Source of the DNA: an uncultured Bacteroides sp.
GTDB taxonomy: Bacteria; Bacteroidota; Bacteroidia; Bacteroidales; Bacteroidaceae
DNA: 64,000 bases
Assembly (NCBI GenBank): GCA_949289265.1
Contig: CASENE010000042.1
Location: 859 to 64,858, forward strand
Reading direction: 5' to 3'
Position numbers and translations under genes: made by a program. Below, piece by piece: positions 1,561 to 63,946 of the stretch. Under the pieces are notes generated by a model. The model searched no databases. It had not been told where the DNA came from and saw only the letters and a program-made list of their open reading frames with translations. Numbering within the stretch: position 1 is the stretch's first letter; every line of letters begins with the position of its first letter.

Positions 1561-3864
1561 ATGAACCGAATTATCCGCAAAGAGCATTTCTCCGAGAAGG
1601 TCTTCAAGCTCGTGGTTGAAGCACCGCTCATCGCCCGGTCGCGCAAGGCCGGGCACTTCGTCATCGTCCGCGTGGGCGAGAAGGGCGAACGCATGCCCCT
1701 CACCATTGCCGAAGCCGACCCCGTGGCCGGAACCATCACCCTCGTGGTGCAGGAAGTGGGCCTGTCGTCCACCCGCCTGTGCGAGTTGCAGGAGGGCGAC
1801 TACATTACCGACGTCGTGGGCCCGCTGGGCCAGGCCACCCATATTGAGAACTTCGGCACCGTGGTGTGCGCCGGCGGCGGCGTGGGCGTGGCCCCCATGC
1901 TGCCCATTGTCCAGGCCCTGAAGGCGGCGGGCAACCGCGTCATCACCGTCTTGGCCGGGCGCACCAAGGAACTGATTATCCTGGAGAAGGAAATGCGCGC
2001 AAGCTCTGACGAGGTCATCATCATGACGGACGACGGCTCGTACGGACAGAAAGGCCTGGTGACGCAAGGCGTGGAGCAGGTCATCCAGCGCGAGAAGGTA
2101 GACAAGTGTTTCGCCATCGGCCCCGCCATCATGATGAAGTTCGTCTGCCTGCTCACCAAGAAGTATGGCATCCCCACCGACGTGTCGCTCAACACCATCA
2201 TGGTGGACGGCACGGGCATGTGCGGCGCCTGCCGCATCACCGTGGGCGGCAAGACCAAGTTCGTCTGCGTGGACGGCCCCGAGTTCGACGGACACCAGGT
2301 GGACTTCGACGAGATGCTGAAGCGCATGGGCGCCTTCAAGCCCTACGAGCAGGAGGAGATGCACAAGCTGGACCATCCCGACACCTGCCAGGCCACGGGC
2401 GAACCCCTCCAGGAAGAAGACAAGACCCGCAACGCCCCCTGGCGCGTGGAGCTACGCAAAGCCATGAAGCCCAAGGAGCGCACCGCCATCCCCCGCGTCA
2501 AGATGCCCGAGCTCGACCCTGAATACCGCAGCCACAGCCGCCGCGAGGAGGTGAACCTCGGACTGAACGAAGAACAGGCCCTGACCGAAGCCAAGCGCTG
2601 CCTGGACTGCGCCAACCCGGGCTGCATGACGGGTTGCCCCGTAGGCATCGACATCCCCCGCTTCATCAAGCACATCGAGAAGGGCGAGTTCCTCCAGGCC
2701 GCCAAGACCTTGAAAGAGACCAGCGCCCTACCCGCCGTCTGCGGCCGCGTGTGCCCGCAGGAGAAGCAGTGCGAGAGCCGGTGCATCCACCTGAAGATGA
2801 ACGAGCCCGCCGTGGCCATCGGCTACCTGGAACGCTTCGCCGCCGACTATGAGCGCGACAGCGGCCAAATCTCCGTGCCGGAAATCAAGGAGAAGAACGG
2901 CATCAAGGTGGCCGTCGTAGGAAGCGGTCCCGCCGGACTGTCCTTCGCGGGCGACATGGCGAAACTGGGCTACGACGTCACCGTCTTCGAGGCCCTGCAC
3001 GAGATTGGCGGCGTGCTGAAGTACGGCATCCCCGAGTTCCGCCTGCCCAACAAGATTGTAGACGTAGAGATAGACAACCTGGCCAAGATGGGCGTGCGCT
3101 TCGAGAAAGACTGCATCATCGGCAAGACGCTGAGCATCGCCCAGCTGAAAGAAGACGGCTTCCGGGGCGTGTTCGTGGCCAGCGGCGCGGGCCTGCCCAA
3201 CTTCATGAACATCCCCGGCGAGAACAGCATCAACATCCTCTCGTCCAACGAATACCTGACGCGCGTCAACCTGATGGACGCTGCCAGCGAAGACTCGGAC
3301 ACCCCCGTACCCTTCGGCAAGCGCGTGGTGGTCATCGGCGGCGGAAACACGGCCATGGACTCCGTGCGCACCGCCCGTCGCCTGGGTGCCGAACGGGCCA
3401 TCATCGTCTACCGCCGCTCGGAGGCCGAGATGCCCGCAAGAATAGAGGAAGTGAAGCACGCCAAGGAAGAGGGCGTGGAGTTCCTCACCCTGCACAACCC
3501 CATCGAGTACCTGGCCGACGAGCAGGGCCGCGTGAAGCAAGTCGTCCTGCAGAAGATGGAGCTGGGCGAACCCGATGCCTCTGGACGCCGCAGCCCCGTG
3601 CCCATCCCCGGCGCCACGGAGACCTTGGACATCGACCTGGCCATCGTCAGCGTGGGCGTCAGCCCCAACCCCATCGTGCCCCACTCCGTCGAGGGACTGG
3701 AGCTGGGCCGCAAGGGCACCATCGCGGTGAACGACGACATGCAGTCGTCCATCCCCTTCATCTTTGCCGGCGGCGACATCGTGCGCGGCGGGGCCACGGT
3801 CATCCTGGCCATGGGCGACGGACGGCGCGCGGCTGCGGCCATGGACAAGCAGTTGCGCGGATAA
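1561..3864 (+). CDS. Fused NfnA-NfnB-type flavoprotein (usually annotated dihydroorotate dehydrogenase B NAD-binding subunit/NADPH-dependent glutamate synthase)
   Basis: N-half GGGVGVAP and DGTGMCGACR...VCVDGP [2Fe-2S] motif; C-half RCLDC..C..GCP, CGRVCPQEKQCE, GSGPAG, GGGNTAMD, AGGDIVRG. Confidence 0.9.
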   Translation: MNRIIRKEHFSEKVFKLVVEAPLIARSRKAGHFVIVRVGEKGERMPLTIAEADPVAGTITLVVQEVGLSSTRLCELQEGDYITDVVGPLGQATHIENFGTVVCAGGGVGVAPMLPIVQALKAAGNRVITVLAGRTKELIILEKEMRASSDEVIIMTDDGSYGQKGLVTQGVEQVIQREKVDKCFAIGPAIMMKFVCLLTKKYGIPTDVSLNTIMVDGTGMCGACRITVGGKTKFVCVDGPEFDGHQVDFDEMLKRMGAFKPYEQEEMHKLDHPDTCQATGEPLQEEDKTRNAPWRVELRKAMKPKERTAIPRVKMPELDPEYRSHSRREEVNLGLNEEQALTEAKRCLDCANPGCMTGCPVGIDIPRFIKHIEKGEFLQAAKTLKETSALPAVCGRVCPQEKQCESRCIHLKMNEPAVAIGYLERFAADYERDSGQISVPEIKEKNGIKVAVVGSGPAGLSFAGDMAKLGYDVTVFEALHEIGGVLKYGIPEFRLPNKIVDVEIDNLAKMGVRFEKDCIIGKTLSIAQLKEDGFRGVFVASGAGLPNFMNIPGENSINILSSNEYLTRVNLMDAASEDSDTPVPFGKRVVVIGGGNTAMDSVRTARRLGAERAIIVYRRSEAEMPARIEEVKHAKEEGVEFLTLHNPIEYLADEQGRVKQVVLQKMELGEPDASGRRSPVPIPGATETLDIDLAIVSVGVSPNPIVPHSVEGLELGRKGTIAVNDDMQSSIPFIFAGGDIVRGGATVILAMGDGRRAAAAMDKQLRG

Positions 3865-3893
3865 GGCAACAAGATTAACCCATTGACAACGAC

Positions 3894-3933
3894 AAAGGCT
3901 TGCGTGCTTCTCCCGCAGAAGACGCAAGCCTTT
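3894..3933 (+). terminator. Intrinsic terminator-like hairpin after the nfnAB-like gene
   Basis: aaaggcttgcgt ... acgcaagccttt, 12-bp stem. Confidence 0.7.
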
Positions 3934-3972
3934 CTTAGTAAGCAGATATACAAAATTAAATGATAATTTATT

Positions 3973-4081
3973 AGCTACGAGCTACAAGCTACGAGCTACG
4001 AGTCAAGTGACTTTAGTTCTTAGTGCACAGCCACTTGTAGCTCGTAGCTCGTCACTTGTAGCTGCGGGGCCTCGCCCCGCT
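3973..4081. repeat. GCTACGA/GCTACAA heptamer inverted-arm hairpin plus a small GC hairpin
   Basis: agctacgagctacaagctacgagctacgag ... cttgtagctcgtagctcgtcacttgtagct, then gcggggcctcgccccgc. Confidence 0.85.
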
Positions 4082-57030: not shown

Positions 57031-57123
57031 CACGCCACGGCCGGCAACTCCCAAGAAAATGCCGCGAAAAGAGGGGAGAAAAGAAAGAAAATCCGTACTT
57101 TTGCACCCAAATCGCAACGACCT

Positions 57124-57663
57124 ATGAACGTCATACAGATAAAAGACAAGCAGTTTGCCGTCTCCATCCCCGAGGCACGCATCCTGCAGGAGGTAGACCG
57201 AGTGGCCGCTGAAATCAACCGCGACCTGGCCGGAAAGAACCCGCTGTTTCTCAGCGTGCTGAACGGCTCGTTCATGTTCACCGCCGACCTCATGAAGCGC
57301 ATCGAGATACCCTGCGAAATCTCTTTCGTCAAACTGGCATCCTATCAGGGCACAGCCTCGACAGGCCGGGTGAAAGAAGTCATCGGCCTCAACGAAGACC
57401 TGGCGGGGCGCACCGTGGTCATCGTGGAAGACATCGTGGACACGGGACTGACCATGCGGCAACTGCTCGACCAGCTGGCCGCACACCGCCCGCAAGAGGT
57501 GCGCATCGCCACGCTGCTGCTCAAGCCCGACAAACTGCAGGTAGACCTGCACATAGATTACGTGGCCATGCAGATTCCCAACGACTTCATCGTGGGCTAC
57601 GGGCTGGACTACGACGGACTGGGGCGGAACTACAAGGACATTTATACAGTGGTTAGTGATTAG
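57124..57663 (+). CDS. hpt: Hypoxanthine phosphoribosyltransferase
   Basis: VLNGSFMF..DL, VIVEDIVDTGLT, FIVGYGLDY; -7 box TACTTTTG at 57096-57103. Confidence 0.96.
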   Translation: MNVIQIKDKQFAVSIPEARILQEVDRVAAEINRDLAGKNPLFLSVLNGSFMFTADLMKRIEIPCEISFVKLASYQGTASTGRVKEVIGLNEDLAGRTVVIVEDIVDTGLTMRQLLDQLAAHRPQEVRIATLLLKPDKLQVDLHIDYVAMQIPNDFIVGYGLDYDGLGRNYKDIYTVVSD

Positions 57664-57839
57664 TGGTTAGTGATTAGTGATTAATACGTGCCGACTTCCC
57701 TTGCGAATCGCCGAGCACTAATCACTAAACACTAATCACTAAACACTAAACGCCAATCACTAATCACTAATCACTAAACGCTAATCACTAAACGCTAAAC
57801 GCCAATCACTAAACACTAATCACTAATCACTAAACACTA
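57649..57839. repeat. TTAGTGA/CACTAAW heptamer inverted-arm element (~5 vs ~17 units)
   Basis: gtggttagtgattagtggttagtgattagtgattaat, 31-nt spacer, cactaat/cactaaa/cgctaaa run at 57716-57839. Confidence 0.9.
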
Positions 57840-57849
57840 TACACATATT

Positions 57850-58422
57850 ATGCTGAACATCGTAATTTTCGGTGCTCCCGGCTCAGGCAAGGGAACACAG
57901 AGTGAGAGAATCGTAGAAAAGTATGGCATCAACCACATCTCCACCGGAGACGTGCTGCGTGCCGAAATCAAGAACGGCACCGAACTGGGCAAGACAGCCA
58001 AGGGATACATCGACCAAGGCCAGCTCATCCCCGACTCGCTGATGATAGACATCCTGGCCAGCGTGTTGGACGGCTTCAAGGACTCGAAGGGCGTCATCTT
58101 CGACGGTTTCCCCCGCACCATCGCCCAGGCCGAAGCGCTGAAGAAGATGCTGGCCGAACGGGGCCAGGAGGTCAGCATCATGCTGGACCTCGAAGTGCCC
58201 GAAGACGAACTGATGACGCGCCTCATCCTGCGCGGCCAGCAGAGCGGACGCGCCGACGACAACGAGGAGACCATCCGCAAGCGCCTCACCGTCTACCACA
58301 GCCAGACGGCTCCCCTCATCGACTGGTACAAGCAGGAAGGCAAATACTGCCACATCAACGGCCTGGGCGAACTGGAGCGCATCACCAGCGATATCTGCGC
58401 GGCTATCGACCAGGTAAAGTAA
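57850..58422 (+). CDS. adk: Adenylate kinase (short LID)
   Basis: FGAPGSGKGTQ, HISTGDVLR, FDGFPRT, GRADDNEETIRKRL. Confidence 0.97.
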   Translation: MLNIVIFGAPGSGKGTQSERIVEKYGINHISTGDVLRAEIKNGTELGKTAKGYIDQGQLIPDSLMIDILASVLDGFKDSKGVIFDGFPRTIAQAEALKKMLAERGQEVSIMLDLEVPEDELMTRLILRGQQSGRADDNEETIRKRLTVYHSQTAPLIDWYKQEGKYCHINGLGELERITSDICAAIDQVK

Positions 58423-58437
58423 AAAAACCGAAGCGCC

Positions 58438-58752
58438 ATGTCTAAAGAAGAATGCACCAACCGGCTATCGTCTGTCCTGTTCTGGGACGTTGACCGCGAC
58501 CAGTTTGACATGGACATACATTCTGCCTTTCTCATCCAACGCGTGCTGGAATACGGCACGCGGGATGACTGGCGCATCATACGCGATTATTATGGCTTGA
58601 ACAAAATAGTGGAATGCTGCAAGCAGATGCGCACGCTCGACCCCATGGCCTTGTCTTTCATCTGTTGCATATCCCATACCAAAGAAGAGGAATACAGATG
58701 TTATCATTTCAGACGGTTGAACCCGGAACTTTGCTTCTTCTCCGAAAGATAA
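58438..58752 (+). CDS. DUF6922-like protein, predicted antitoxin partner of AbiEii
   Basis: LFWDVD, IQRVLEYGT..DW...DYYG; overlaps the downstream NTase gene by 55 nt. Confidence 0.75.
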   Translation: MSKEECTNRLSSVLFWDVDRDQFDMDIHSAFLIQRVLEYGTRDDWRIIRDYYGLNKIVECCKQMRTLDPMALSFICCISHTKEEEYRCYHFRRLNPELCFFSER

Positions 58753-59318
58753 TGCAAGCCGACTGTCTGTCGGAGACGCGACTGGTGGGTGGCACAGCAT
58801 TAGCCTTGCAATACGGTCACCGCACCTCGGTAGATCTCGACCTATTCGGCCACGTGGCCGAAGGAAGCGAGGAAGCCATTGCAGAGATCTTGCAGCAGGC
58901 CGGACGACTGACTATCGGCAAGGTATCCCGGAACATCAAAATGTATAAGGTGGATAATGTCAAGATAGACATCGTGAATTACAACTATCCATGGATAGAC
59001 CACTGCGTGCAAGAGGACAAACTCCGCTTGGCCTCACCCAAGGATATTGCCGCCATGAAGATTAACGCCATTGAAGGACGTGGCTCCAAGAAGGACTTTA
59101 TCGACCTCTATATCCTGCTACAACATTACACATTGGACGAGATACTCGACTTCTACCAACAAAAATACCCTGAACACTCTCTATTCCGTGCCGTGCTAAG
59201 TCTCACCTACTTCAATGACGCAGATGCTAATCCCATGCCACGCATGTTCCTCCCTACGTCGTGGGAAGAGATGAAGATGGCCATTCAAAGGGAAGTGGAG
59301 ATGTATTCCAACAGGTGA
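58698..59318 (+). CDS. AbiEii/AbiGii family nucleotidyltransferase toxin
   Basis: RLVGGTALALQYGHRTSVDLDLF, DIAAMKINAI.GRGSKKDFIDLY, LTYF.DA. Confidence 0.88.
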   Translation: MLSFQTVEPGTLLLLRKIMQADCLSETRLVGGTALALQYGHRTSVDLDLFGHVAEGSEEAIAEILQQAGRLTIGKVSRNIKMYKVDNVKIDIVNYNYPWIDHCVQEDKLRLASPKDIAAMKINAIEGRGSKKDFIDLYILLQHYTLDEILDFYQQKYPEHSLFRAVLSLTYFNDADANPMPRMFLPTSWEEMKMAIQREVEMYSNR

Positions 59319-59359
59319 AAAACGCGCATCTGCACTGCAAAAAGTGCAAATTCCACACA

Positions 59360-59396
59360 AAAGTGCACTGAATTCAGTGCACTTTATCTATCTTTG
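59360..59396 (+). promoter_or_regulatory. Perfect 26-bp palindrome next to a -7 box
   Basis: aaagtgcactgaattcagtgcacttt (59360-59385), then TATCTTTG (59389-59396). Confidence 0.7.
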
Positions 59397-59417: not shown

Positions 59418-60407
59418 ATGGTTCAAATAATTTGTGATACTTGGAAAGAAGCAAAAGGATTTATTTTGCAACATCCTGAACTTATCGGGCAAGTTATGCT
59501 TAAGTCCGAAGGAAAGAATATTACAGACATATATGATCCGAATCATACAAGAGATTGGACTAGCCAAATATCACAAGAAGAACTCATTCAGATAATAGAT
59601 AGTATAGAAAATATATTAGAGCCGTCTATCAAGACTGGTTCCAATGGTGTTTATAAAGAGTTATTATCTGATCAGAGATGGATAGACAAAAGCAATAAGA
59701 TTAAGAGAAGAGATTTTGATACTTGCACAAGATGTTATAATAGTGTTGTATTAAACAATATCTCAGAGTTAAGAGCTTATCTAAGTAATGAAAGAGATTT
59801 TGAAAAAATAAAAAGTCTATTCCCGTATAAGCCAACTGATTTAGAGTTAAAAGAGTGCGATAGAACCAACTCCATAGTAACACATGGATACATCCCCTCT
59901 ATCGGACTTTGGATTTATGATATAGTACATACGCCAAAATGTTTGGGGGATACAAATTATAAAGGTATCATATTTTCAAATAAAGAAATCCAAACTGATA
60001 ATTGTAAGTGGGCCTCTAGCATTTATAATTCTATCAACCCTACAATATCTGATTACAAAGGAATAAACAGACATCTGTATTGGCAATATTGCGAATCGGG
60101 AAATACTGATAACAAACTCATATTATCGCATAGCGTTAGCGTGGACAAAGTACCTTATTTCCCTAGGGACTATAGAGGAATAGGCATACTTACTTACAAC
60201 CAATACAGCATCATCTTTCCGCTATTCCAACTGAATACGGTTAATTTATTAGAAGTACACCATAAAGTGTACAAAAAGATAAATGGAGAATTTATAAAGC
60301 CGTGGGAATATGAAGATGGGGAATTAGAAACACTTTGCCATTCTTGTCACCAACAACAGCACAAAGAAGAGAACATAAAGATAATTCATCGCAACACTTT
60401 CAAATAA
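59418..60407 (+). CDS. AT-rich HNH endonuclease-like protein with a large internal insert
   Basis: Y.ELL.D.RW..K...IK.RD..TCTRC, ~170 aa, then LEVHHKVY...[18 protein letters not shown]; in-frame ATG at 59418 (track start TTG 59394). Confidence 0.7.
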
Positions 60408-60417
60408 CAATCATACT

Positions 60418-61605
60418 ATGCCAGAATCCAACTTCGTAGACTACGTGAAGATATACTGCCGCTCGGGCAAGGGCGGACGAGGTTCCACCCACATGCACCG
60501 CGCCAAATACATGCCCAAGGGAGGCCCCGACGGCGGCGACGGCGGACGCGGCGGAAACATCATCCTGCGCGGCAACCGCAACTACTGGACGTTGCTGCAC
60601 CTGAAGTACGAACGACACATCCTGGCCGGACACGGCGAGAACGGCTCGAAAAACCGCAGTTTCGGCAAAGACGGCGAGGACAAAGTCATAGAAGTGCCCT
60701 GCGGCACCGTGGCCTACAACGCCGAGACGGGTGAATACCTATGCGACGTCACCGAACACGGGCAGGAAGTCGTCTTGCTGAAAGGCGGACGAGGCGGACT
60801 GGGCAACTGGCACTTCCGCACCGCCACCCGGCAAGCCCCGCGCTTCGCCCAACCCGGCGAACCGATGCAGGAAATGACCGTCATCCTGGAACTGAAACTG
60901 CTGGCCGACGTGGGCCTGGTGGGCTTCCCCAACGCAGGCAAATCCACCCTGCTCAGCACCGTGTCGGCCGCCAAGCCCAAGATAGCCAACTACCCCTTCA
61001 CCACGCTGGAGCCCAACCTGGGCATCGTGTCCTACCGCGACGGCAAGTCGTTCGTCATGGCAGACATCCCCGGCATCATCGAGGGGGCCAGCCAGGGCAA
61101 GGGCCTGGGACTGCGCTTCCTGCGGCACATCGAGCGCAACTCCCTGCTGCTGTTCATGGTGCCAGCCGATGCCGACGACATCGCCCGGGAATACGAAATC
61201 CTGCTGAACGAACTGCGCACCTTCAACCCCGAGATGCTGGACAAGCAGCGCGTACTGGCCGTCACCAAGTGCGACATGCTGGACCAGGAACTGATGGACG
61301 AAATAGAGCCGACGCTGCCCGCCGGCATCCCGCACGTGTTCATCTCCTCCGTCACCGGACTGGGCATCGACACCCTGAAAGACATCCTTTGGACGGAACT
61401 GAACAAGGAAAGCAACCGCCTGGAGGGACACATCGAAAGCATCGCCCACCGTCCCAAAGACATGAGCCACCTGCAGGAAGAACTGAAGGAAGAAGGGGCG
61501 GACGAAGACCTCACAGTGGAATACATCGACGAGGACGACATCGAAGACCTGGAGAACTTTGAATACGAAGAAGACTGGGACGAGGAGACCGACGAACAGA
61601 AATAG
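60418..61605 (+). CDS. obgE: GTPase Obg/CgtA
   Basis: [52 protein letters not shown], acidic C-terminal tail. Confidence 0.98.
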
Positions 61606-63601: not shown

Positions 63602-63946
63602 TCATAAACCTATACCGTTACGGCGCAGAATATCCATCAGTTCGGCATCGCTGATGTTTTCCCGCTCCGACTTGTCGTAGATGGTAATCAACTTGACTTC
63701 AGTTTCGATTTGGGCAAAAACGACCGTGTAGGTTATCACCCGCGCGCCGCCGCTCTTCCCCTTGCCTTTGGAAGCAATGGGCATCCGGACTTTGCGCAAA
63801 TGATGTCCCAGGCTTGTCCCCAGCAAAGGGTTTTCGTGCAAATCCTCACCTAACTTAGCCAAGTCAGCCCGCAAAGATTTATACCGCTTTGCCAGCCTTT
63901 TCATCTCCTTGAGGAAATCAGGGGTAACGGTAATCTTACAATTCAT
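63602..63946 (-). CDS. RelE/ParE-superfamily type II toxin
   Basis: F.KEMKRLAKRY.SL, NP.LG..LG..LRKVRM, KGKSGGARVI, IYDKSE.ENI. Confidence 0.85.
   Translation of the reverse strand: MNCKITVTPDFLKEMKRLAKRYKSLRADLAKLGEDLHENPLLGTSLGHHLRKVRMPIASKGKGKSGGARVITYTVVFAQIETEVKLITIYDKSERENISDAELMDILRRNGIGL

Follow-up and report, generated by a model that had tools for sequence, protein, structure and literature searches.

Can the catalytic motif of an HNH nuclease be divided by an entire folded domain, and what would such a protein do? The question is raised by one gene, here called the HNH gene (product P0001), in a 64,000-nt stretch of DNA from an uncultured Bacteroides sp. (contig CASENE010000042.1; hereafter the window). 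An initial annotation had pointed out that the two halves of a zinc-binding HNH module, normally only about 10-20 residues apart, are separated in this protein by about 170 residues of unrecognised, beta-rich sequence and preceded by an N-terminal extension of about 75 residues. It had suggested that the insert may be a specificity or sensor domain, for modified DNA or a phage protein, and that the protein could represent a new effector architecture. The reading frame is intact throughout (59418-60407, forward strand), and its ATG at 59418 is kept in homologues, while an in-frame TTG at 59394 is not. Coordinates are collected in Table 1.

By its sequence, the split motif is a canonical zinc-type HNH. 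The first half reads Y79-K80-E-L-L83...W88...R98-D99...C103-x-x-C106 and the second L278-E-V-H281-H282...Y285...P295-W296-E-Y298...L303-x-T-L-C307-x-x-C310-H311...H315, with 174 residues between the first CxxC (C103-C106) and H281-H282, close to the initial estimate. In the native protein, the Pfam HNH profile finds only the C-terminal half (residues 276-317, 10.7 bits, E 0.61, below the cut-off of 21.4), which also matches the PHROG HNH families 119 and 144 at about 3-5e-7. When residues 113-272 are cut out in silico and the 99-residue remainder is scanned, the Pfam HNH profile (PF01844) aligns over its full length (1-47 of 47) with 25.8 bits, above the gathering score of 21.4, and phrog_119 spans both halves with an E-value of 1.2e-11. 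The PF01844 match thus rises above the cut-off only when residues 113-272 are treated as an insertion, and the two zinc-binding halves that the initial annotation had delimited are borne out. So is the short spacing that it had taken as normal: both motif halves could be placed in 151 relatives, and in 56 of these the first CxxC and HH lie fewer than 20 residues apart.

The key residues of the frame are also conserved across the family. In an alignment of 32 diverse members (22-50% identity with the query), Y79, L83, W88, C103, C106, H281, H282, Y285, W296, L303, L306, C307, C310 and H311 are invariant, including all four structural zinc ligands (C103, C106, C307 and C310), and H315 is at least 90% conserved. 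The full-length AlphaFold2 model (predicted local distance difference test, pLDDT, 75.8; predicted template modelling score, pTM, 0.61) places a strand at 279-281, a strand at 304-306 and a helix at 308-316, which is the beta-beta-alpha order, with pLDDT 64-80 there. Foldseek of this whole-protein model against the PDB gave no match, HNH folds included. P0001 is presumably an active nuclease. It resembles the phage-type zinc-finger HNH endonucleases (PF01844; PHROG 119, 144 and 589; 5h0m, the Geobacillus virus E2 HNH endonuclease) in the helix Y..L....W...R..I..RD, the CxxC knuckle, L.VHH, PWEY and L.TLC..CH...H, and half 1 aligns with the same region of 5h0m. It differs from them in three respects: they have fewer than 20 residues from CxxC to HH, whereas the 174 residues in P0001 form a separate folded domain; P0001 is chromosomal; and viral collections yielded no copy with the insert.

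The same frame evidence bears on the idea that the HNH module is a catalytically silent zinc scaffold, serving as an adaptor with the insert as a protein-interaction domain. The precedent would be DotN/IcmJ from the Legionella Dot/Icm coupling complex (5x42, 5x1h), DotN being a non-nuclease HNH-like zinc protein. In a sequence search of the PDB, these two entries match the N-terminal half of P0001 best, including the RD..C..C knuckle; the motif Asn is not conserved in the family, and the gene can exist without an immunity partner, all of which would suit a scaffold. However, the DotN matches are weak (E 0.014-0.04) and DotN has no nested domain, H281, H282 and H311 are invariant and H315 nearly so in a family with a mean identity of only 22%, and the C-terminal half matches active phage HNH families. 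We therefore consider a silent scaffold improbable.

What, then, is the insert? It is 163-204 residues long in all 32 aligned members, and when modelled alone (25 sequences) it reached a pLDDT of 86.4 and a pTM of 0.85, with a short strand and two helices followed by about ten antiparallel strands. The earlier description as beta-rich is therefore true for most of it, though not for its start. Because of the near-constant length and the confident stand-alone model, we count the insert as a domain, and the model supports the view that it folds autonomously. Family-wide conservation is limited to its two ends (n...L..i..l..y....e....i...F at the start, y.GQG.L..n..sIIFPLy.l at the end) plus one threonine, T230; the central sheet keeps its length, not its sequence.

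The insert also stayed as unrecognised as it had first appeared. It had no match in Pfam, PHROGs, PADLOC or PDB sequences, and Foldseek, which the initial annotation had proposed, found no relative of the confident model in the PDB (best E 0.46, TM score below 0.25) or in BFVD (best E 0.13). An insert-only profile run against 5.8 billion sequences retrieved HNH-family proteins only, and it found nothing in 400 other genomes of the phylum. The isoelectric point (pI) of the insert is 6.9 in P0001 (median 6.0 over 25 members), and its net charge ranges from -8 to +4. The insert is thus an orphan domain, neutral to acidic and unlike the known modified-DNA readers.

A beta-rich insert of the size of a mini-intein, interrupting a catalytic core at a conserved site where different proteins carry different inserts, might be a mobile intervening sequence, such as an intein, whose splicing leaves a normal HNH protein. 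Its borders and its fold speak clearly against this. There is no conserved Cys, Ser or Thr at the upstream junction, and the insert does not end in His-Asn with a Cys, Ser or Thr after it; instead the downstream junction reads ..NTVN|LLEVHH and varies between members. No Hint or intein match was obtained with Pfam, and no Hint fold in the PDB despite the confident model. On the grounds of junction residues and fold we reject the intein explanation, to which we attach almost no probability.

Whether the insert is hypervariable within a shared frame, a point raised at the outset, could be answered from natural alleles: within the gene, hypervariability is concentrated in the centre of the insert, an exchangeable module that has moved as a cassette between alleles. 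The plainest case is a pair of metagenome loci, L001 and L012, whose hpt, adk and obg products are 99.4-99.5% identical, so that they belong to the same species, and whose HNH proteins share only 59% of their residues. In their DNA, the two loci are 100% identical upstream and through the first ~300 nt of the HNH gene, then drop to 40-65%, interrupted by many indels, across the stretch that corresponds to window positions 59726-60150, and return to 92-96% beyond. At the protein level, identity is 91% in the N-terminal extension, 86% in half 1 and 85% in half 2, but 26% for residues 113-150, 37% for 151-215 and 70% for 216-272, with 41 gap columns over residues 113-215. The same mosaic pattern is repeated between P0004 and P0011. 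In an unrelated Bacteroidetes metagenome-assembled genome (locus L047), tandem paralogues share their first 25 and last ~85 residues, and their inserts of ~140 residues do not align. These two L047 genes (2488-4027) encode split-HNH proteins of 250 and 230 residues, the second with a Cx4C first knuckle in place of CxxC.

Synonymous divergence (dS) between insert types is saturated (2.2-2.5) compared with 0.2-0.4 in the frame, which shows that the insert diversity is old and was recombined into a young, shared frame. Three of the types are A, carried by the window and L001, B, carried by L012, and C, carried by P0011. Every copy of the gene in the comparison of nonsynonymous to synonymous rates (dN/dS) is intact and evolves under purifying selection, with ratios of 0.1-0.3 for the frame regions and, within one type, 0.5-0.6 for the insert. 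Positive selection on point mutations of the insert was considered and dismissed, as the insert ratio is raised but below 1 and the diversity comes from recombination of old cassettes. Exchange of this kind is what would be expected of a specificity or sensor module. It recalls the HsdS subunits of Type I restriction systems, in which a conserved frame likewise flanks anciently diverged variable domains that are reshuffled between alleles; the protein, the fold and the chemistry are different, however, and here the variable domain lies inside the nuclease itself.

The cassettes could accordingly be read as specificities of a Type IV-like, or a sequence- or structure-specific, restriction nuclease whose nested domain binds DNA through a modified base or a sequence. 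McrA, ScoMcrA, VcaM4I (EVE-HNH) and TagI are modification-dependent HNH restriction enzymes with an N-terminal reader of known fold (PUA/EVE, SRA or SBD) placed in series (PMC7897488, PMC6765204). Like the McrA/VcaM4I-type enzymes, the HNH gene is solitary, joins a non-catalytic domain, there a recognition domain, to an HNH nuclease and has no methyltransferase; neither an immunity nor a methylase gene lies beside it in four independent loci (L001, L012, L078 and L080). As a partnerless, unspecific DNase would be lethal, high substrate selectivity would be one way out, and the exchange of a variable module as a cassette fits a set of specificities. Unlike those enzymes, P0001 has its extra domain nested in the HNH motif, and that domain has no known fold, is not basic and is exchanged as a cassette. 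No modification-reader domain (SRA, PUA/EVE, YTH, SBD or DUF3427) was found in the insert or the N-terminal extension by Pfam, NCBIfam or PADLOC, and the insert is also unlike winged helix and NUMOD modules. Most inserts are neutral to acidic, and the membrane-anchored and HepT-fused relatives described below would be unusual for restriction enzymes. We regard a DNA-reading restriction nuclease as possible but on the whole unlikely.

The N-terminal part of the protein behaves as a separate module. In P0001 it is the extension of residues 1-75, acidic (pI 4.6), of alpha/beta type and found in Bacteroides-like genomes; it has no Pfam, NCBIfam or PADLOC match, and a profile search against PDB sequences returned noise only. 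In the distant members P0016-P0019 (~35% identity) its place before the HNH-plus-insert core is taken by a HepT ribonuclease domain (PF01934, E 7e-17 for P0019 as scanned here; precomputed annotation for P0016-P0019), and the gene lies directly downstream of an MNT nucleotidyltransferase gene. These fusions keep an intact R-x4-H motif (RDIIAHHY) and liken the family to the MNT-HepT (type VII) toxin-antitoxin systems; to our knowledge, classical HepT toxins carry no HNH. The window protein, in contrast, has no PF01934 match and no MNT gene nearby. That its extension could be a decayed HepT domain was suggested by MAFFT, which placed it under the HepT of the relatives, and was discarded at an hhalign probability of 2.4%. 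In 18 members, the N-terminus is a single hydrophobic helix followed by Lys/Arg. According to the positive-inside rule, such residues after the helix leave the remainder in the cytoplasm, so that the nuclease of these membrane-anchored members should be cytoplasmic. Another form has no N-terminal extension and a C-terminal zinc ribbon (CxxCxGxG...GxCFxCxG). Ribbons of the pattern C.RC.G.G.(L/F)P.Y.H...G.CF.C.G.G, made of DnaJ/Anti-TRAP-like CxxCxGxG pairs, end P0052, P0064, P0093, P0098, P0102, P0104, P0118 and the L047 open reading frames; the window protein has none.

How widespread is the architecture? When 1.84 billion representatives were searched with a profile, 4980 matched, of which ~40 align in one stretch through the insert; the others are ordinary HNH proteins, aligned as two stretches. 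The split-HNH architecture thus defines a rare family that lacks annotation and comprises ~40 clusters at 50% identity, and among named genomes a profile search of related loci found it complete in Bacteroides sp. ET71 only. Many further relatives carry unrelated inserts of 100-140 residues at the same loop, which makes the inter-knuckle loop an insertion hot spot of the subfamily. On the weakly resolved tree of HNH frames, the long-insert label needs 6 changes, versus 42 for shuffled labels, suggesting that the long insert arose few times. Insert-bearing copies were found neither in IMG/VR nor, by tblastn, in sequenced phages or plasmids, and the matches on viral contigs are canonical, insert-free HNH genes only. 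Literature searches returned no description of an HNH-nested insert. The suggestion of a new effector architecture is thus upheld as regards the nesting and qualified as regards uniqueness, since P0001 is not a one-off. The HNH catalytic family was already known; new, as far as libraries and literature show, are the nested domain, its orphan fold and its exchange as a cassette.

Table 1. Elements of the adk-obg region of the window and parts of the HNH gene, with predicted roles.
Feature	Position	Strand	Remarks
adk	57850..58422	+	upstream border of the variable slot
DUF6922 + AbiEii-type nucleotidyltransferase gene pair	58438..59318	+	second, independent cargo
short hairpin TGCACT-n6-AGTGCA	59331..59348	+	conserved in L001, L012, L016 and L017
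palindrome AAAAGTGCACTGAATTCAGTGCACTTT	59359..59385	+	11-bp arms, 4-nt loop, T-rich tail; conserved
candidate -7 box TATCTTTG	59389..59396	+	fits TAnnTTTG; 21 nt upstream of the ATG
split HNH nuclease reading frame (P0001)	59418..60407	+	329 aa plus stop
N-terminal extension, residues 1-75	59418..59642	+	acidic, alpha/beta, no family match
HNH half 1, residues 76-108	59643..59741	+	helix Y79..L83..W88..R98-D99; first zinc knuckle C103-x-x-C106
nested insert domain, residues 109-276	59742..60245	+	one strand, two helices, about ten antiparallel strands
variable, exchangeable insert core, residues 113-250	59754..60167	+	26-37% identity, many indels, between alleles with 99.5%-identical flanks
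HNH half 2, residues 277-329	60246..60404	+	strand L278-E-V-H281-H282; P295-W-E-Y; strand T305-L-C307; helix with C310-H311...H315
obg (GTPase)	60418..61605	+	starts 10 nt past the HNH stop (gap 60408-60417)

In the window, the HNH gene stands in the order hpt, adk, DUF6922/AbiEii-type pair, HNH gene, obg. Its GC content is 0.331, compared with 0.59 for adk, 0.61 for obg and ~59% for the whole window, in agreement with the marked AT-richness noted earlier. This supports the view that the gene is foreign and was acquired horizontally, set between housekeeping genes of a gut Bacteroidaceae genome. HNH copies of 60-82% identity (L001/L002, L012, L078/L079 and L080) all lie between adk and obg as well, in the order adk-HNH-obg in L001, L012, L078 and L080. 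Of 61 related genomes, only the window's own was found to carry the gene, and P0001 matched no other genome among 36 from its genus. The adk-obg spacer was compared across 30 genomes of the genus: it is usually 3-180 bp long, and the others hold different genes. The two closest relatives have an AAA_14/DUF4143 ATPase gene there, and genes for a four-helix bundle and an HU-like protein are among the other cargo. The site is therefore polymorphic for presence and absence, with the HNH gene at the window and the loci just named and an empty slot or other cargo at the 30 fetched loci.

Two signals upstream of the gene suggest how such a slot may work. The palindrome AAAAGTGCACTGAATTCAGTGCACTTT looks like a terminator, and in relatives it directly follows adk; a folding energy of -25 kcal/mol was predicted for the 70-nt stretch that contains both hairpins. 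In Bacteroidetes, the -7 promoter consensus is TAnnTTTG, and the TATCTTTG box, which fits this consensus, would be a promoter element; it is invariant in all five aligned loci, and no other TAnnTTTG occurs before obg. Both hairpins and the TATCTTTG box precede the HNH gene in some genomes and the AAA_14/DUF4143 ATPase gene in the two closest relatives. When slots are compared (L016 2074-2190, L017 1527-1643), homology is lost just past the -7 box and found again from the obg start codon onwards. To judge from these elements, the layout of the locus is terminator, promoter, exchangeable cargo and obg. The gap between the HNH gene and obg contains neither a terminator nor a -7 box, the HNH gene and obg are probably co-transcribed, and obg, an essential gene, appears to rely on read-through out of the cargo. 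No recombinase gene lies near the slot.

The DUF6922 and AbiEii-type genes are the only other genes in the slot of the window. The DUF6922 gene (E 6.6e-20), whose product is probably an AbiEi-like partner, overlaps the AbiEii-type toxin gene (Pfam E 2.1e-15; PADLOC AbiEii E 6e-9), and the pair is inserted between the adk stop and the hairpin/promoter module. We dropped it as a candidate partner of the HNH gene, for it is absent from L001, L012, L078 and L080, and its absence from these other HNH-bearing loci makes it a separate cargo.

Some further features of the region were noted in passing. In the hpt-adk spacer (57640-57850), long arrays of 7-nt units (TTAGTGA / TCACTAA and variants) make up nested inverted repeats of up to 43 nt, and in L022, L024, L040 and L042 from the same genus the adk-obg spacer is filled by similar palindromes of heptamer repeats, built from other units. 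TAnnTTTG occurs 27 times in the whole window, against 13.0 +/- 3.4 expected (0 of 100 shuffles reach 27), and marks probable promoters, such as the one at 57096 before hpt. On the reverse strand at 63602-63946 lies a reading frame of 114 residues whose product is similar to toxins of the RelE/HigB type; the L001 orthologue gives a weak match to Pfam RelE and has a 97-residue partner gene upstream, which would make it another small toxin-antitoxin module near the slot.

The precise placement of an AT-rich, foreign gene between promoter and obg start codon in several species, polymorphic within the genus, calls to mind a selfish, free-standing homing endonuclease that would cut the empty adk-obg junction or another conserved site and copy itself in, with the insert as its DNA-recognition domain. 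The insert-free relatives are typical phage HNH genes, and one relative, P0013, lies beside a truncated PIN gene inside 69-bp direct repeats, both of which would suit a homing gene. At one and the same site, however, the gene carries very different cassettes, the opposite of what a fixed target predicts. The slot also holds unrelated cargo (AAA_14 ATPase, AbiEii pair and others), so that it is the slot, not the gene, that explains the position. Moreover, there is one copy per genome, no NUMOD, IENR (IENR1) or helix-turn-helix module was found in the protein, and other members sit at unrelated loci in membrane-anchored or HepT-fused form. Homing thus seems a poor explanation, and we give it little weight.

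Elsewhere, the genomic context of members was surveyed at about ten loci. The member in L008 lies beside WYL and NERD-UvrD genes, and that in L009 among PD-(D/E)XK genes in a mobile-element-like region. In L047, a 741-residue protein with a NOV_C domain is encoded directly upstream of the tandem pair, and a reverse transcriptase and a DnaB-like helicase follow 2-3 kb downstream. The L075 member is P0013 (48% identical), with an Abi_2 gene upstream and a truncated PIN toxin gene close by. P0013 (L075 4422-6142) was further seen to belong to a 1652-bp unit between 69-bp direct repeats that are 99% identical; the unit also holds a 95-residue putative antitoxin and the PIN (VapC-like) gene, which is cut to 40 codons exactly where the AT-rich HNH segment begins.

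Together, these data suggest, with about even confidence, that the HNH gene encodes a horizontally acquired accessory nuclease, probably of defence type, whose specificity or control resides in the nested, exchangeable domain. A single-protein defence or abortive-infection effector is the most likely type. The HepT-MNT fusions, the WYL, NERD-UvrD, Abi_2, reverse transcriptase and NOV_C neighbours, and the slot shared with the AbiEii pair and the AAA_14/DUF4143 ATPase all count in its favour. The core would be a zinc-stabilised (CCCC) beta-beta-alpha-metal HNH domain of the phage-type subfamily (Y..YL.S..W...R..VL.RD...C..C / L.VHH..Y....PWEY..L.TLC..CH...H), carrying the insert in the loop that joins the first zinc knuckle to the catalytic HH strand. 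The conserved ends of the insert (the strand with two helices, and the Y.GQG.L..N..SIIFPLY hairpin) may dock it onto the HNH frame, and its exchangeable centre would set what the enzyme responds to, be it a DNA feature or a trigger such as a phage protein. A trigger would release an otherwise restrained active site, and the place beside the catalytic histidine strand would suit such gating. The N-terminal part would act as a separate, replaceable module for localisation or regulation, which is soluble and acidic here and a membrane anchor, or HepT with MNT, elsewhere. Expression would come from the terminator-promoter-[cargo]-obg slot, probably together with obg.

Within this nuclease model, we slightly favour trigger sensing and gating over direct reading of DNA, because the insert is not basic and unlike DNA or modification readers, and because relatives are deployed as toxin-antitoxin fusions or tethered to membranes. 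The original suggestion of a specificity or sensor domain is strengthened by the autonomous fold and the cassette exchange; modified DNA as what it would sense gains no direct support from a domain that is neutral to acidic and unlike known readers.

Several points weigh against an accessory defence nuclease with a gated active site. For none of the members is an activity, a toxic effect or a phage phenotype known. Defence-island neighbourhoods occur in only a handful of loci, and the window locus is a housekeeping operon. PADLOC-DB v2 has no model for a split HNH and gave only a marginal ZorE2 match to the C-terminal half (E 0.061). The HNH motif lacks a conserved structural Asn, as the residue before L303 varies among the 32 members, and the AlphaFold2 model has a pLDDT of only 64-66 over residues 271-290 and 78-80 over 291-310. 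Closure of the zinc site across the insert is suggested by the conservation of its ligands, not by a measured geometry. With its dN/dS below 1, the insert gives no direct sign that positive selection acts on point mutations, and an acidic or neutral charge is only weak evidence against DNA binding.

A bolder version of the same model would see the whole family as single-protein immune sensor-effectors, in which an exchangeable sensor of novel fold in the HNH catalytic loop gates the beta-beta-alpha-metal site allosterically. A phage-derived trigger bound to the variable sheet would allow the HH strand to dock, which would switch on the cleavage of DNA; the soluble, membrane-tethered and HepT/MNT forms would deploy one and the same switch, and by exchanging cassettes it would keep up with evolving phages. 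In this full form the idea is speculative, and we think it rather doubtful.

Few effector modules are used as much in bacterial immunity and genome engineering as HNH nucleases, and in the cases known to us, target recognition comes from domains in series or from partner subunits. If the accessory nuclease model is true, a recognition or regulatory domain would sit inside the catalytic motif and be swapped by natural alleles while the frame is kept, which would provide a compact natural example of the control of a nuclease by domain insertion. Insert types in a near-identical frame would then be ready-made chimeras for finding out what the module reads. The family also gives a name and a structural hypothesis to metagenomic proteins that are labelled only “HNH endonuclease” or are not annotated at all, and its locus documents a “promoter-[cargo]-obg” slot that exchanges accessory genes in gut Bacteroidaceae.

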